Source: a phage
Direction: 5' to 3' (one strand)
Length of the DNA stretch: 39,720 bases
Sequence record: PZ618370.1
Shown in pieces: positions 3,588 through 13,933 of this stretch. Made by a program: the position numbers and the translations under genes. The notes under the pieces were generated by a model, which made no database searches, was not told where the DNA came from, and saw only the letters and a list, made by a program, of their open reading frames with translations. Each line of letters begins with the position of its first letter. Positions within the stretch are counted from its first letter, which is position 1.

Positions 3588-6269
3588 ATGAGCGTCATCT
3601 CTATTGACAAACACGACTTCTCTGACGTGTCGAATGCCATTGAGCCATTTAACCTGCTGGCTGACCACTACGGGCAAGACCTTGCAGTCAAGCAGCTTCA
3701 GCTTGAGCATGAGGCATACACTGAAGGCGAGCGACGTTTCATCAAGAACCTTGAGCGCCAGACTGAGCGCGGGGAACTGGCAGACAATCAGGTCGCCAAG
3801 CCTTTGATGCAGACTCTGGTCCCTAAGATTGCGCAAGCCGTCAAGGAGTGGCACGAAGGAAAAGACGGGAAGCTGTCAACCTCTCGCCCAAGCGTAGCGT
3901 TTACCATGCTGAGCACTGATGAGAAGGCTGTCAAAGACCGCTCTCTGCTCATCTCCTGTGGGTCTGCTGCGGTTATCATACTGAAGGTCATCCTCTCCAA
4001 GCTGGTCAAGCCTGAAGGGATACCGATTACACCGATGGCCTCAGCGATAGGCCGCACACTTGAAGATGAAATCCGCTTCGGTCGCATTCGTGACAAGGAG
4101 CGGGAGCACTTCAAGAAGGCGATAGCTGAGAACCTGAACAAGCGAGCCGGGGCATCCTACAAGAAAGCCTACATGCAAGCGGTTGAAACCTCCATGCTGG
4201 AGCAGGGTCAACTGGAAGATGCGTGGGGAAATTGGAGTCCTACCGAGGCGGTACACGTTGGCATCAAGATGCTTGAGATTGTCATCCAGTCTACACAACT
4301 TGTCGAGCTTAAGCGTTATGGTGCTGGCAATGCATCGGCTGACGTTGAGATGGTCCACCTGTCAGACTTCTGGGTAAAGAAGATGGCACAACGTGGATTC
4401 AGCCTCGCGGGTATCGCGCCAGTATATCAACCTTGCGTAGTACCACCTAAGCCGTGGACTGGTGTCGTGGGTGGTGGGTATTGGGCCAAAGGTCGCAGAC
4501 CGTTGCCGCTGATTCGATTAGGGTCTAAGTCTGCGGTGGCACGTTACGAAGACGTGTACATGCCTGAAGTCTACGACGCTGTGAACATCATTCAGAATAC
4601 ACCTTGGAAAGTGAACAAGAAGGTTCTGGACGTGGTGAACATGGTCGAGAAGCTGAACAACACACCTATTAAAGACATCCCGCAAATGGAACCACTGAAG
4701 CCTGAGGACTATGCAGGTGAGACTGAAGAGGAACTCAAGGCATGGAAGAAAGCTGCTGCTGGTATCTATCGTCGCGAGAAGGCCCGAAAGTCACGCAGAT
4801 TGTCACTGAGCTTTATCGTTAACCAAGCGAACAAGTTTTCTCAGTTTAAGGCCATCTGGTTTCCGTACAACATGGATTGGCGAGGTCGCGTCTACGCTGT
4901 ACCGATGTTCAACCCTCAGGGTAACGACATGCAAAAAGGCCTCCTGACTCTTGCGGTCGGCAAGCCTATTGGTTCCGATGGCTTCAAATGGCTGAAGGTA
5001 CACGGTGCAAACTGTGCGGGTGTAGATAAAGTAACCTTCGAGGAGCGCATTAAGTGGGTGGAAGACAACCATGACAACATCATGGCTACCGCTAAAGCAC
5101 CGATGGATAGCATTGAGTGGTGGGGCAAGTTAGGCTCCCCGTTCTGCTTCCTTGCGTTCTGCTTCGAGTATGCTGGCGTAATGCATCACGGATTGTCTTA
5201 CTCATGCTCGCTGCCGATAGCGTTCGATGGGTCATGCTCTGGGATTCAGCACTTCAGCGCGATGCTTCGTGACCACATCGGTGGACATGCAGTAAACCTG
5301 ACGCCTTCCGGTAAGGTCCAAGACATCTACCGCATCGTGTCTGACCGCATTGAGGAGGAACTTAAAGTCCTGCTGGTTAACGGTACGGACAACGAGATGG
5401 TGACTCAAGAGGACAAGAAAACAGGTGAGATTACCGAGCGTCTTAAGCTGGGGACACGAGAGCTTGCGCGCCAGTGGCTTACCTATGGTATGTCACGAGA
5501 GGTCACTAAGCGTTCGGTCATGACTCTGGCATACGGGTCGAAAGAGTATGGATTCGCAGACCAAGTGTACGAGGATATCGTGATGCCAGCGATTGACTCA
5601 GGGTCTGGCGCTATGTTCACCGAGCCAAGCCAAGCATCTCGCTTCATGGCTAAGATGATTTGGGAAGCTGTTAGTGTGACCGTAGTTGCTGCGGTTGATG
5701 CGATGAAGTGGCTTCAAGGTGCTGCCAAGCTGCTGGCTGCTGAAGTGAGTGACAAGAACACAGGCGAAATCCTGAAGCCGTGCCTTCCTGTACATTGGGT
5801 CACACCCGATGGTTTCCCGGTCTGGCAGGAATACCGAAAGAAAGATACCACTCGTCTGAACCTGATGTTCTTAGGGTCATTCAACCTTCAGCCTACCGTC
5901 AACAGAGGCACGAAGAAAGAGTTGGACAAGCACAAGCAGGAGTCAGGCATTAGCCCGAACTTCGTCCACTCACAAGATGGTAGCCACCTCCGCAAGACTG
6001 TAGTCCACACGCACCGCAAGTATGGCGTGATGTCCTTCGCAGTGATTCACGATAGCTTCGGGACCATCCCGGCTGACGCTGAGTATCTGTTCCGTGGCGT
6101 CCGTGAGACGATGGTAGAGACCTACCGCGACAACGATGTGCTGCTTGACTTCTACGAGCAGTTTGAATACCAGCTTCACGAGAGCCAGCGCGACAAGTTG
6201 CCTGAGCTTCCGAAGAAAGGTAAACTGAATATCGAAGACATCTTGTCTTCAGACTTTGCATTTGCTTAA
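3588..6269 (+). CDS. 1: single-subunit DNA-directed RNA polymerase (T7 gp1 family, 893 aa)
   Basis: Full-length collinear similarity to T7 RNAP as recalled (SREVTKRSVMTLAYGSKE, HWVTPDGFPVWQEY, NFVHSQDGSHLRKTVV, IHDSFGTIPADA, C-terminal FAFA). Confidence 0.97.
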   Translation: MSVISIDKHDFSDVSNAIEPFNLLADHYGQDLAVKQLQLEHEAYTEGERRFIKNLERQTERGELADNQVAKPLMQTLVPKIAQAVKEWHEGKDGKLSTSRPSVAFTMLSTDEKAVKDRSLLISCGSAAVIILKVILSKLVKPEGIPITPMASAIGRTLEDEIRFGRIRDKEREHFKKAIAENLNKRAGASYKKAYMQAVETSMLEQGQLEDAWGNWSPTEAVHVGIKMLEIVIQSTQLVELKRYGAGNASADVEMVHLSDFWVKKMAQRGFSLAGIAPVYQPCVVPPKPWTGVVGGGYWAKGRRPLPLIRLGSKSAVARYEDVYMPEVYDAVNIIQNTPWKVNKKVLDVVNMVEKLNNTPIKDIPQMEPLKPEDYAGETEEELKAWKKAAAGIYRREKARKSRRLSLSFIVNQANKFSQFKAIWFPYNMDWRGRVYAVPMFNPQGNDMQKGLLTLAVGKPIGSDGFKWLKVHGANCAGVDKVTFEERIKWVEDNHDNIMATAKAPMDSIEWWGKLGSPFCFLAFCFEYAGVMHHGLSYSCSLPIAFDGSCSGIQHFSAMLRDHIGGHAVNLTPSGKVQDIYRIVSDRIEEELKVLLVNGTDNEMVTQEDKKTGEITERLKLGTRELARQWLTYGMSREVTKRSVMTLAYGSKEYGFADQVYEDIVMPAIDSGSGAMFTEPSQASRFMAKMIWEAVSVTVVAAVDAMKWLQGAAKLLAAEVSDKNTGEILKPCLPVHWVTPDGFPVWQEYRKKDTTRLNLMFLGSFNLQPTVNRGTKKELDKHKQESGISPNFVHSQDGSHLRKTVVHTHRKYGVMSFAVIHDSFGTIPADAEYLFRGVRETMVETYRDNDVLLDFYEQFEYQLHESQRDKLPELPKKGKLNIEDILSSDFAFA

Positions 6270-9065: not shown

Positions 9066-9507
9066 CCATAAACCAACTGCTGCCCAAGAACTTCTGGAAC
9101 TTAACTTTAACGTAAGAGACGAAGCTAGCTGCGGTAAGGGGATAATCTGCAAGGGACTATCATGTGATCGATGTCCAATGGTAGGTCAGCTGTCAGGTGA
9201 TGGAGAGTACAAGACCCTTCGTGACTTACGGGCCTCTGTGGGAACAGTGGGAACGTGCAGCGAAGACGATGGTGTACGCAAGCCTCCCCACTATCAGGTC
9301 TTTGACGGTGTGGAATCCATTGAGATTATCGCTCGGTCTATGACTGTCAGCGAGTTCCGTGGTTTCTGCATGGGCAACGTCCTGAAGTATCGACTACGAG
9401 CTGGTAAGAAGTCAGAGCTGGCGACTATGGAGAAGGACCTGAACAAAGCAACCTTCTATCAGGAGCTGTTCGACCTACATAAAGGTAAGTGCTATGCTGC
9501 CGAGTGA
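9058..9507 (+). CDS. hypothetical protein (gene 1.7 position; Cys-rich N-terminus CGKGIICKGLSCDRC)
   Basis: ORF with SD GAAGGAGG; C-terminal HY..F.GVE.IEI...F..GN.LKY motif resembles a phage domain of unknown function; not confirmed. Confidence 0.5.
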   Translation: MINHKPTAAQELLELNFNVRDEASCGKGIICKGLSCDRCPMVGQLSGDGEYKTLRDLRASVGTVGTCSEDDGVRKPPHYQVFDGVESIEIIARSMTVSEFRGFCMGNVLKYRLRAGKKSELATMEKDLNKATFYQELFDLHKGKCYAAE

Positions 9508-9585
9508 GTGGTGCCGGGAGATGTACGAGAAGACTCTCAACCCGGACTACATTACGTTATACAACCAATGGAAGGAGCGCGGTTT

Positions 9586-9744
9586 GTGACTGAGGTTGAG
9601 AAGAAATACATCGTGGAGCTTGAGGGTCGAGTTCAGTCCTTCGAGGTTCCGGTGTACGCAAAGTCTCTTGAAGAGGCTACCCTGAAGTCCCAAGAGTATG
9701 AGGACGCTGGGTTTGTGGTCGGACGGATTCGTCCTGAGACCTAA
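9586..9744 (+). CDS. 2: host RNA polymerase inhibitor (T7 gp2-like)
   Basis: [14 protein letters not shown]...[10 protein letters not shown] matches T7 gp2 SFEVPIYAETLDEA...AGFEVTRVRP as recalled. The track ORF starts at GTG 9508 without SD; GTG 9586 follows a perfect AAGGAG (9572-9577). Start uncertain (ATG 9568 also possible). Confidence 0.6.
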
Positions 9745-9762
9745 ACTATCACTGTAGGGCAG
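9740..9762 (+). promoter_or_regulatory. phage RNAP promoter (phi2.5-like)
   Basis: CCTAAACTATCACTGTA-GGGCA; G at -3; +1 G at 9757. Confidence 0.7.
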
Positions 9763-9801
9763 ACGTCCAGTTAGTAACTTTAAATTAGGAGATTTACACC
9801 A

Positions 9802-10500
9802 ATGGCTAAAGAGCAACTGAAGACTTTCACCACTCCGGTAGCTGGTATCGTTGAGCCTTACGCATGGCTAAACAAAGCAGACACCAAGTTTAACGATCGT
9901 GGTGAGCACAAAGTCAACCTGACATTCGACCTGAGCAACCCGAAGGTCCGTAAGATGATTGATGTCTTACAGAAGATTCATGACGATGCGTATGCGAAAG
10001 CACTCGCAGACCACGAGAAGAACCCACCTCAGGTTCAGCGTGGCAAGAAGCCTATTGAACCACGAGAAGGCGACATGCCGTGGATTGAGAATGGTGATGG
10101 TACTGTTACCCTGAAGTTTAAATGCTTTGCGTCTTACCTGAAGGATGGTAAGTCAGAGCCTATCGTATTACGGTTCTACGACACCGATGCTAAGTTAATC
10201 CGTGACGTCCCGAATATTGGTGCTGGCTCCAAACTGAAGGTCAAGTTTAAAGTCCTGCCGTTCAAGTGGAACGCTGCTACTGGTGCAAGCGTTAAGCTGC
10301 AGCTTGAGTCCTGCCTTCTGGTAGAGCTGAAGGAATGGAAAGGTGATGGTGCTGGTGGAGATGGTGGCTGGGGTGATGATGAAGACCTAGGCACTGGATA
10401 CAAAGCGTCAACCGATGGTGACTTCGGTGACGATGACTTCGGTGACGATGGTTCCGAAGGCAGTGACGACTCCAACTCTGGTGGCGATTACGACTTCTAA
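9802..10500 (+). CDS. 2.5: single-stranded DNA-binding protein (gp2.5)
   Basis: 232 aa as in T7 gp2.5; acidic C-terminal tail ending ...GGDYDF (terminal Phe as in T7); preceded by a promoter. Confidence 0.9.
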   Translation: MAKEQLKTFTTPVAGIVEPYAWLNKADTKFNDRGEHKVNLTFDLSNPKVRKMIDVLQKIHDDAYAKALADHEKNPPQVQRGKKPIEPREGDMPWIENGDGTVTLKFKCFASYLKDGKSEPIVLRFYDTDAKLIRDVPNIGAGSKLKVKFKVLPFKWNAATGASVKLQLESCLLVELKEWKGDGAGGDGGWGDDEDLGTGYKASTDGDFGDDDFGDDGSEGSDDSNSGGDYDF

Positions 10501-10952
10501 TGGCCCAATGGTCTGCAAAACGGGGGCACTCTGTGGGTGCCTACCGCTCTGGACTTGAAGCCAAGAACCAGCAGTGGCTGGAACAGAACGGCGTCAAAGC
10601 GGAGTACGAAAGCCATTATATCAACTATGTGATTCCGGCTTCCGACCACAAGTACACACCAGATTTTATCCTTCCTAACGGTATCATCGTGGAGACCAAA
10701 GGTATCTTCGACAGCGATGACCGTAAGAAGCACCTTCTGGTACGAGAACAGCACCCAGAGTTAGACATCCGGTTCGTGTTCTCAAGTTCACGCTCCAAGC
10801 TATACAAAGGGTCCCCGACCACGTATGGCGCATGGTGCGAAAAGAACGGCTTTAAGTTTGCCGATAAGTTCATCCCGGTTGAGTGGCTGCGAGAGGCGAC
10901 TGTACGTCTGCCTTCCGGTATCCTCATCCCCAAGAAAGGAGTTAAGAAATGA
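10500..10952 (+). CDS. 3: endonuclease I (Holliday junction resolvase, gp3)
   Basis: YVIPASDHKYTPDF, GIIVETKG, SDDRKKHLLVREQHPELDIRFVFSSSRSKLYKGSPTTYG, FCEK.G.KFADK match T7 endonuclease I as recalled. Confidence 0.92.
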   Translation: MAQWSAKRGHSVGAYRSGLEAKNQQWLEQNGVKAEYESHYINYVIPASDHKYTPDFILPNGIIVETKGIFDSDDRKKHLLVREQHPELDIRFVFSSSRSKLYKGSPTTYGAWCEKNGFKFADKFIPVEWLREATVRLPSGILIPKKGVKK

Positions 10953-11401
10953 CTCGTAAAGCAATCATTGTCGACCTTACCAATGGCGGCGCTTACACTG
11001 ATAACTTCAAGGAGGGCCAAGAGGTCTTCGTTAAGTTCTGCCGTAAGTCCCTATTCACACGAGATGGGGACCTGTGGCATGTGTCACATGACGGAGTTAA
11101 GTGGAGTGATACAATGTACGGTAAGCGCCTGAAGTTCGTGGACAGCCCTGCAAAACCTGAGGTAATCCCAGCTTCGAGCGTACAGCCTGTGACTGTGAAG
11201 CGTGAAGTCCTTACCATCGACAAGATTGGTGTAGGCCAGACGTTCATCGTCCACGGTAAACCTGAGGAAGTTTACGTTAAGATTAGCAACTCACACGTCT
11301 TCAACCATAAGCGTCTCCAGATGCACACCACGGACGCACAACGCTTCACCCAGCACCTGAATCTGGTGGTCGTAGAATTGGTGGTGTACAATGGTAAGTA
11401 A
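10949..11401 (+). CDS. hypothetical protein inserted between endonuclease I and lysozyme (150 aa)
   Basis: Strong SD AAAGGAG; start overlaps the gene 3 stop and the end overlaps the gene 3.5 start; no T7 counterpart and no recognisable motif. Confidence 0.55.
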   Translation: MTRKAIIVDLTNGGAYTDNFKEGQEVFVKFCRKSLFTRDGDLWHVSHDGVKWSDTMYGKRLKFVDSPAKPEVIPASSVQPVTVKREVLTIDKIGVGQTFIVHGKPEEVYVKISNSHVFNHKRLQMHTTDAQRFTQHLNLVVVELVVYNGK

Positions 11402-11849
11402 GGTACAGTTCAACCCACGGTCCCGGACTGACGCTATCTTCGTTCACTGTTCGGCTACCAAGCCAGAGATGAACATCGGGGTAGAGACCATCCGTATGTG
11501 GCACAAGCAGCAGGGCTGGCTGGACGGAGGCTACCACTTTATCATCAAGCGCGATGGTACTGTGGAAGAGGGTCGCCCGGTCAATGTCGTAGGGTCACAC
11601 GTTAAGGACTGGAACTCCAAGTCCGTAGGCGTCTGCCTTGTAGGTGGAATCAACGCTAAGGGTAAGTTTGAAGCTAACTTCACTCCAGCCCAGATGAACT
11701 CCCTGCGTAACAAGCTGGCTGACCTGAAGGCCCTGTATCCTCAGGCAGAAATCAAAGCACACCATGACGTAGCACCTAAGGCGTGTCCAAGTTTCGACTT
11801 GCAACGCTGGCTGTCTACCAATGAACTGGTCACTTCCGACCATGGATAA
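11391..11849 (+). CDS. 3.5: lysozyme / N-acetylmuramoyl-L-alanine amidase (gp3.5, RNAP inhibitor)
   Basis: KVQF..RS.TDAIFVHCSATKP, GYHFIIKRDGTVEEGR, VGVCLVGGI..KGKF.ANFTPAQM, HH.VAPKACPSFDL.RW, NELVTSD match T7 lysozyme as recalled. Confidence 0.92.
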   Translation: MVSKVQFNPRSRTDAIFVHCSATKPEMNIGVETIRMWHKQQGWLDGGYHFIIKRDGTVEEGRPVNVVGSHVKDWNSKSVGVCLVGGINAKGKFEANFTPAQMNSLRNKLADLKALYPQAEIKAHHDVAPKACPSFDLQRWLSTNELVTSDHG

Positions 11850-11934
11850 GATAGACTTTCTGCTTATCCTTCTGTTATCAGGAGCAATCACCTTCGTAGG
11901 ATGGTGGTTCTTCCCTGAACACTTTGAACTTTAA
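11842..11934 (+). CDS. possible 30-aa hydrophobic peptide
   Basis: ATG overlapping the lysozyme stop; hand-translated MDKIDFLLILLLSGAITFVGWWFFPEHFEL; speculative. Confidence 0.2.
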   Translation: MDKIDFLLILLLSGAITFVGWWFFPEHFEL

Positions 11935-11948
11935 AGGAGAACAACTCA

Positions 11949-12164
11949 GTGATTAAACTTATTGAATTTCTTGGTCGTCTGGTGGTGCGTGGCTATCGTC
12001 GTGCTGCGGTTATGGAACGAAAGGTAGCAGAGAAGGCTGCTGAAGGTGCGGCTGATGCTGCTGCTCTGGCTGACAAGCTGACCATCGAGTCACTGGAAGC
12101 TGGTATGAAGGCACGCCAAGCCGACACCAAAGCTGACCAGTTGGCTCAGTTCTTCAAAGCCTAA
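11949..12164 (+). CDS. hypothetical protein (71 aa, Ala/Lys-rich)
   Basis: GTG start after SD AAGGAGA; stop TAA is part of the following promoter. Confidence 0.45.
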   Translation: MIKLIEFLGRLVVRGYRRAAVMERKVAEKAAEGAADAAALADKLTIESLEAGMKARQADTKADQLAQFFKA

Positions 12165-12182
12165 ACTATCACCTTAGGGATG
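12160..12182 (+). promoter_or_regulatory. phage RNAP promoter, divergent (phi4-like)
   Basis: CCTAAACTATCACCTTA-GGGAT; mismatches at -4/-3; +1 G at 12177. Confidence 0.5.
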
Positions 12183-12229
12183 GGACCATGAGTCCTGTCC
12201 CTTTGTTAGCATTTATGATTAAGGAGTGA

Positions 12230-13933
<1,704 letters not shown>

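Follow-up and report, generated by a model that had tools for sequence, protein, structure and literature searches.

Gene 3.2 between endonuclease I and amidase in a Kayfunavirus-type phage: a constant core with exchangeable N-terminal modules and predicted SH3-like barrels

Overall, after analyzing a 39,720-nucleotide stretch of phage DNA (sequence record PZ618370.1; hereafter, the window), we assign the open reading frame (ORF) at 10949-11401 on the + strand, which begins with ATG and encodes 150 amino acids (aa) plus a stop codon, to gene 3.2 of the genus Kayfunavirus. Its product, gp3.2, is predicted to consist of two small SH3-like beta-barrels with a Pro-rich linker between them. The last ~70 residues, the core, are nearly invariant within Kayfunavirus, and the part upstream of them is replaceable. 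We hold this identity and this architecture to be close to certain. Judging by its relatives, gp3.2 is an already catalogued, named and genus-wide hypothetical protein and not a novel insertion. What we add is the predicted two-barrel fold, the combination of a constant core with swappable cassettes, the purifying selection and the transcription unit; no earlier description of the architecture was found. The protein has no recognisable catalytic motif in its sequence, and we tentatively propose that it serves as a non-enzymatic binding adaptor, in which a constant docking barrel carries an exchangeable recognition barrel.

Family membership and modular architecture of gp3.2

The 5 kb of the window around gene 3.2 are 92-96% identical to many genomes of Kayfunavirus (K1F-like Studiervirinae), the closest being that of Escherichia phage vB_EcoP_SP7. 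The original prediction, made from the letters of the window alone, had described the gene as unassigned. This stands for its function but not for its name, since homologs are called gp3.2 in EcoDS1, K1F and Dev2 and gp3.01 in CR44b, and the protein matches PHROG 16385 (E 6.2e-50, aa 47-150) and PHROG 15211 (E 1.5e-40, aa 79-150). The best full-length match among GenBank phages is in RDN8.1 (87%). With tblastn, the C-terminal 70 aa were found in 220 of 50,697 phage records, and the homologs make up 255 protein clusters. An endonuclease I at least 80% identical to the window copy is carried by 221 records, out of 1,454 with any endonuclease I. Because the 220 core records so nearly equal these 221 records, gene 3.2 is essentially universal in Kayfunavirus, and the view of the gene as a sporadic insertion gives way to that of a resident gene. 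Absence from close relatives, which had been named as a point that would weigh against the gene, was found for the N-terminal half only: Salmonella phage ST66, for example, keeps a 74-aa core, and the core itself is universal. The family is also present in a small clade of Providencia phages and is absent from the T7, T3 and KP32 groups.

Full-length gp3.2 gave no Pfam match at E<=1, and 11 core sequences gave only noise (E>0.02). No match was obtained in NCBIfam or, with either the single sequence or the core profile, in the PDB, and the defence models of PADLOC-DB returned 0 families at E<=10. The literature searched for gp3.2, its PHROG identifiers and gene 3.01 of CR44b yielded nothing beyond a mention in a genome table. 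In one unverified record (OR594184.1, phage SHAK9454; locus L025), the stretch is labelled primase/helicase, endonuclease VII and DNA polymerase I, and the actual sequence reads endonuclease I-gp3.2-amidase; the annotation looks coordinate-shifted.

The protein divides into an N-terminal module, which is of type A in the window, a linker and the core (Table 1). Within the core, G96, F99, Y109, S113-N-S-H116, F118, Q124-M-H126, T128 and R132-F133 are invariant; all of them are present in the window protein, and they are kept in the Providencia-phage and other divergent members, even at 30-37% identity to the window core. The polar motif in this region reads S113-N-S-H116-x-F118-(N119) ... Q124-M-H126-T-T128 ... 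R132-F133, with N119 invariant in one alignment (A3) and nearly invariant in the other (A4). The core is basic in every clade (isoelectric point, pI, 8.2-10.2), and the modules span pI 4.2 to 9.3. A conserved Pro-rich segment (...KPQVLPASSVPPVTVKR...) connects every Kayfunavirus module to the core, and the junction ...PQVLPASSVPPVTVKR, common to proteins with modules A, B, C and D, is the right-hand cassette border. As read from these alignments, the conserved end of gene 3 and the Pro-rich segment frame the cassette.

The module types comprise A with its homolog A2, B (found in K1F, EcoDS1 and CR44b), C, D and E, with P1-P3, Q and R in other clades. According to BLAST and hhalign, at least five types (A, B, C, D and E) are mutually unrelated and are also unrelated to the core; hhalign probabilities did not exceed 14%, except for A with A2 (99.7%), for P1, P2 and P3 (at least 98.5%) and for a partial match of B with E (60% over 28 residues). 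Apart from these exceptions, the same comparisons led us to reject an origin of the N-modules by duplication of the core or of one another. Across 186 protein clusters, module B is counted 67 times, A 35, D 24, C 13, A2 9 and E 6, and tandem forms (B+A2, A+D, B+D, C+D and Q+D) are among the arrangements found. Core-only versions of 74-76 aa start right at the gene 3 stop, as in ST66, and in P0123, P0071, P0083 and P0095, a decayed N-module (by in-frame deletion, frameshift or late start) precedes an intact core.

Among GenBank phage records, module B occurs in 56, D in 27 and A in 11, and the window gp3.2 is thereby one of the less common (type A) members. The modules match once per record, every listed match lies at the gene 3.2 locus, and none was found elsewhere in the 50,697 phage genomes. 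A hidden Markov model (HMM) search of 1.84 billion representative proteins with a profile of type A plus core gave 17 matches, all of which are small T7-like phage proteins except two spurious repeat proteins (P0131 and P0133). Because this search otherwise yielded only the small phage family, module A was not seen in any other context in that set, nor did cellular homologs emerge from it. The GC content of the modules, overall and at third codon positions (GC3), resembles that of the neighbouring genes, and a foreign origin is not supported by composition. Of the 11 type A records, 8 are from Enterobacter cloacae phages, compared with 18 Enterobacter records among the 220 (Fisher p = 5e-8, uncorrected for relatedness).

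In the structural models, module A and the core are small barrels that are superposable on SH3 or SH3-like domains. The core model (AlphaFold2, AF2) required an alignment with added homologs from the Providencia clade; a low-diversity alignment gave a predicted local distance difference test (pLDDT) score below 50 for the core. In BFVD, a fold search retrieved family members and small phage proteins without a name, and nothing else.

Selection, coupling and transcription of gene 3.2

At the base composition of the window, the chance of a 150-codon open frame from the given start is ~5e-4. Over the last 66 codons of gene 3.2, compared across 19 related loci, the ratio of nonsynonymous to synonymous substitution rates (dN/dS) is 0.13 at a synonymous divergence (dS) of 0.71, and genes 3 and 3.5 both have a ratio of 0.12. 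Among six type A genes (dS ~0.6 in each of the three segments), dN/dS is 0.17 in the N-module, 0.33 in the linker and 0.08 in the core. Taken overall, the core has a dN/dS of 0.08-0.13 at a dS of 0.4-0.7, like genes 3 and 3.5, and the N-modules evolve faster (0.17-0.29). Because dN/dS is low at a dS of ~0.6, the conservation of gene 3.2 reflects selection at the protein level and not at the DNA level; by this measure, gene 3.2 is a protein-coding gene under purifying selection. An untranslated chance ORF or annotation artefact has a negligible probability in our judgment. The dN/dS values of 0.08-0.17 at this divergence, the retention of the ORF in 220 phages, its strong Shine-Dalgarno sequence and coupling, and the confident fold predictions for both domains all contradict such an origin.

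The type B N-module has a dS of 1.24 (dN/dS 0.26), compared with 0.38 in its own core and 0.22-0.29 in genes 3.5 and 3, and the type B linker has a dN/dS of 0.03. This pattern points to type B modules as old alleles that were reshuffled by recombination, not to local hypermutation. We also considered a target of a diversity-generating retroelement (DGR), which is excluded because the window holds no template repeat: nothing in gene 3.2, whole or in part, was found a second time there at the DNA or protein level, with no dedicated reverse transcriptase scan made. The heavy synonymous divergence between modules (the dS of 1.24 above) likewise disfavours DGR-type hypermutation.

The signals around the gene agree with those originally reported, including the AAAGGAG Shine-Dalgarno sequence and the coupling on both sides. 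The gene 3.2 ATG (10949-10951) shares two bases with the gene 3 TGA (10950-10952), forming an ATGA with a 4-nucleotide (nt) overlap, and the gene 3.5 ATG at 11391 lies 11 nt inside the end of gene 3.2. The first overlap is present in 20 of 20 loci (the window and 19 related loci), and likewise in the divergent contigs L020, L021 and L022; the second is present in most of the 20 loci. The gene downstream of gene 3.2 varies in other clades, but the upstream coupling to gene 3 does not. In the Providencia-phage clade, two small ORFs (L020 4466-4819, 117 aa, with no family, and 4800-5039, 79 aa, with a weak likeness to PHROG 1950) lie between the gp3.2 homolog and the amidase gene. Therefore, the coupling of gene 3.2 to gene 3.5 is not universal, whereas that to gene 3 is. 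The 74-aa homolog of gp3.2 in Citrobacter phages has been tabulated with an identical AAAGGAG-N7-ATG context (PMC4925675). Gene 3.2 is thus positioned, to judge from these overlaps, for translational coupling to endonuclease I. In the window sequence, no Shine-Dalgarno sequence precedes V81 from which the core could be expressed separately. In T7, as the original prediction had stated, endonuclease I (10210-10707) and lysozyme (10707-11162) abut, and gene 3.2 is absent.

The promoter motif of the phage RNA polymerase (RNAP), TAAACTATCACNNTAGG, was derived from promoters annotated in CR44b. It has 11 matches in the window, all on the + strand, compared with 0.08 expected by chance; their positions (3498, 7025, 8756, 9742, 12162, 18295, 21116, 22115, 26663, 33939 and 39171) provide a putative promoter map of the whole genome. 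The matches at 9742 and 12162 bracket genes 2.5, 3, 3.2 and 3.5 and two small ORFs, and the motif does not recur between them. Sites resembling sigma-70 promoters and terminators are no more numerous in 9500-12400 than in shuffled sequence, and an internal promoter or terminator near gene 3.2 was rejected, the site numbers being at chance level. Because the bracketing promoters have no further motif match between them, we place gene 3.2 in the class II DNA-metabolism unit. By its position, it is a genuine middle-class (class II) gene in one predicted phage-RNAP unit with the single-stranded DNA-binding protein (2.5), endonuclease I (3) and the amidase (3.5), which bears out the expectation of expression together with the DNA-metabolism genes. 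Two antisense ORFs lie inside gene 3.2 (10993-11247, 84 aa, and 11084-11254, 56 aa, both on the - strand); they are probably chance frames because all eleven promoter-motif matches are on the + strand.

Table 1. Positions of gene 3.2, its predicted parts and the flanking features in the window
Feature	Position	Strand	Basis or remark
Phage RNAP promoter upstream of gene 2.5 (putative unit start)	9742..9758	+	TAAACTATCACTGTAGG; one of 11 motif matches
Gene 3, endonuclease I	10500..10952	+	PF05367 Phage_endo_I, E 3e-82
Shine-Dalgarno sequence AAAGGAG	10935..10941	+	Within the 3' end of gene 3, 7 nt before the gene 3.2 ATG; read from the sequence
Gene 3.2, member of the Kayfunavirus gp3.2 family	10949..11401	+	ORF list, PHROG matches, tblastn relatives
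N-terminal module type A (aa 1-64), exchangeable, predicted SH3-like five-strand barrel	10949..11140	+	
Pro-rich linker (aa 65-80, DSPAKPEVIPASSVQP), predicted disordered	11141..11188	+	pLDDT <50
Constant C-terminal core (aa 81-150), basic, predicted SH3-like small barrel	11189..11398	+	
Family-invariant polar motif	11285..11347	+	Alignments A3 and A4; strands 4-5 and the following turn of the modelled core
Gene 3.5, amidase/lysozyme	11391..11849	+	PF01510 Amidase_2, E 5.5e-16
Next phage promoter, upstream of gene 4 (putative unit end)	12162..12178	+	Motif match

The gene cluster is known to host homing endonucleases, T7 gene 3.8 among them, which is what would favour reading gp3.2 as a homing endonuclease or another selfish mobile insertion. 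HNH_3 genes lie between genes 2.5 and 3 in two IMG/VR phages (L007 364-813 and L018 426-875) and between genes 3.2 and 3.5 in Salmonella phage PRF-SP1 and many of its relatives (L029 1016-1465). Because true HNH_3 genes have been inserted there in relatives, the cluster is a homing hotspot that is distinct from gene 3.2. The HNH_3 ORFs match PF13392 at 9.8e-15 to 6.6e-16; gp3.2, in which the original prediction had seen no HNH or other nuclease motif, matches neither that family nor GIY-YIG, LAGLIDADG or any other Pfam family at E<=1. The sensitive homology search that had been proposed returned members of the gp3.2 family, apart from the two spurious repeat proteins, and no homing endonuclease family, and the proposed fold prediction gave two SH3-like small barrels and not a homing-endonuclease fold. 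Moreover, ~220 of 221 Kayfunavirus-type records have the core, which makes it genus-universal; only the N-module varies. By these comparisons, a homing endonuclease or another selfish insertion is effectively refuted.

Proposed function of gp3.2

T7-like phages are the best-understood lytic phages, yet the genus-universal gene 3.2 has no assigned function. The adaptor role that we tentatively favor would work as follows. The constant basic barrel would dock onto a component that is always present during infection, be it nucleic acid or a conserved phage protein of DNA metabolism. Endonuclease I would be the most economical docking candidate, and it is the obvious one, since the coupling to gene 3 is the only feature of the locus that stays the same in all clades. 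The exchangeable N-terminal barrel would contribute a contact specific to the strain or host, for example with a variable host factor or a defence protein; the swapping of cassettes seen among relatives suggests such a host-specific binding role. gp3.2 would then be an accessory of host takeover or counter-defence rather than a core replication protein. The positions that vary most among type A modules (11-22, 30-38, 44 and 50-55) fall in the beta1-beta2, beta2-beta3 and distal loops of the model. In canonical SH3 domains, the corresponding loops form the ligand-binding face, and the variability may be consistent with a binding face in module A.

Several observations weigh against this proposal. 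The variability of the loops is only suggestive, since in most proteins the loops are more variable than the strands in any case. The models cover module A and the core only, and the barrel fold of modules B-E is assumed. Diversifying selection is not shown, given that the N-modules average a dN/dS far below 1. The association of type A with Enterobacter hosts is confounded by closely related isolates, which inflate the Fisher p. Phages of the T7, T3 and KP32 types do without gene 3.2, which means that endonuclease I does not need it, and the constant adjacency to gene 3 may be simple synteny. Additionally, no functional literature, binding partner, phenotype or expression datum was found for gp3.2.

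The main rival holds that the core alone is functional, as a 70-aa nucleic-acid-binding barrel in DNA metabolism, and that the N-modules are moron-like in-frame passengers. The cassettes would have settled in the one place that tolerates them, behind the gene 3 stop and ahead of the core, and would stay in frame only to borrow its translation signals; the two halves would not cooperate. We consider this unlikely, though a serious contender. Core-only versions of 74-76 aa are common and intact, N-modules decay while the core stays intact, the modules are additive in tandem forms, the core is basic, and the GC and GC3 of the modules are unremarkable, all as expected of passengers. However, the modules are all in-frame fusions, and none was found as a separate ORF in ~186 clusters and 20 loci, in a search that was anchored on the core. 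The Pro-rich linker is conserved with every Kayfunavirus module, with the dN/dS of 0.03 in type B. The modules occur nowhere else in the 50,697 phage genomes, and type A occurs nowhere else in 1.84e9 proteins, which would be unexpected for free-standing morons.

A dedicated partner of endonuclease I, such as a regulator, an inhibitor, a chaperone or a targeting subunit, with the variable module directing it to host DNA or nucleoid proteins, would fit the overlap with gene 3, which all clades share even where the downstream neighbour differs. It would also fit the basic barrel of the core and a distribution that is about one to one with the Kayfunavirus-type endonuclease I. We nevertheless judge this improbable: gene 3.2 is missing from over 1,200 phage records that have endonuclease I, T7 and T3 among them, and endonuclease I is highly conserved whatever the type of module.

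The variable module might instead be a target and not a binder. Abortive-infection systems or other host sensors would recognise gp3.2, and the swap or loss of a cassette would be an escape. The loss and replacement of modules are frequent, a deep allelic divergence (dS 1.24) is maintained, and the distribution is linked to the host, as such sensing would predict. However, if escape were all that mattered, the module should tend to be lost in every lineage, yet most of them retain one under purifying selection (dN/dS 0.17-0.29), and some retain two. We therefore give this explanation only a slim chance.

Returning to the adaptor, an extended version can be envisaged in which gp3.2 is cassette-programmable: an invariant effector or docking barrel, possibly acting with endonuclease I or DNA, would be retargeted by swapped SH3-like barrels and would tune host takeover or counter-defence to the enterobacterial hosts. 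Recombination at two places, the conserved end of gene 3 and the Pro-rich linker, would bring about the swaps, as an intracellular analogue of the module exchange of tail fibres. This extended version is doubtful in our view. More generally, an invariant core, at least five unrelated swappable cassettes and modules that track the host genus make a host-interaction or arms-race locus plausible. Kayfunavirus is a genus whose members are widely isolated for therapeutic use (K1F-like phages that infect E. coli, Salmonella Typhi, Enterobacter, Citrobacter and Cronobacter). If the adaptor role is true, the identity of the module could help to predict or engineer host range beyond receptor recognition, and T7-type DNA metabolism would gain a new control point in the partner of the core. 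If it is wrong, gene 3.2 is one more conserved hypothetical protein, an ordinary finding.

Neighbouring ORFs and comparison with known systems

Downstream of the amidase gene, two small ORFs precede the next promoter. A 30-aa ORF at 11842-11934 (+; MDKIDFLLILLLSGAITFVGWWFFPEHFEL) has an ATG that overlaps the amidase stop (ATGGATAA), and its product is strongly hydrophobic and resembles a single membrane helix. Phage SP7 has an annotated ORF in the corresponding place (SP7_0018), and locus L019 has a similar C-terminal sequence (...GWWFFPEHFEL). The product could be a small membrane peptide tied to lysis or amidase function. The other, a 71-aa ORF at 11949-12164 (+), matches PHROG 1950, whose function is unassigned (E 9e-25), and has a sub-threshold likeness to DUF5471; in the Providencia-like contig L020, a related ORF follows gp3.2 and precedes the amidase gene.

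Among known systems, the closest are gp3.2 of the Escherichia phages K1F and EcoDS1 and of Cronobacter phage Dev2, and gp3.01 of Citrobacter phage CR44b. They share with the window a homologous core (up to ~97-99% identity), the position directly after gene 3 and identical start and stop overlaps. They differ in the N-terminal half: K1F, EcoDS1 and CR44b have a type B module and Dev2 has none, whereas the type A module of the window belongs to no PHROG and occurs in only 11 of the GenBank phage records. In terms of fold class, the nearest systems to the predicted barrels are FeoA, the C-terminal SH3-like domain of DtxR/IdeR, domain I of EF-P (KOW), ribosomal protein L2 and eukaryotic SH3 domains. 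Neither full-length gp3.2 nor the 11 core sequences gave a sequence match to the FeoA/DtxR-type family (Pfam FeoA), only the noise at E>0.02.

T7 encodes small class II proteins that bind host factors, namely gp2 (RNAP), gp5.5 (H-NS), gp5.7 (RNAP), gp5.9 (RecBCD) and gp4.5 (Lon). gp3.2 resembles these accessory proteins in neighbourhood and expression class, and it is likewise small, apparently non-enzymatic, dispensable in other genera and genus-specific; however, it has no homology to them. To our knowledge, none of these host-factor binders combines a constant domain with exchangeable cassettes. With the HNH homing endonucleases (T7 gp3.8 and the HNH_3 ORFs), gp3.2 shares the status of an extra, tightly packed ORF in the gene 2.5-4 cluster, but it lacks a His-Me finger, has a different predicted fold and is genus-universal rather than sporadic. 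Finally, by analogy only, gp3.2 is comparable to phage tail fibres and tailspikes, which also exchange unrelated modules at a conserved junction and have a host-linked distribution. In contrast to these virion proteins, gp3.2 would be a small intracellular product of a middle gene, with its variable part at the N terminus.

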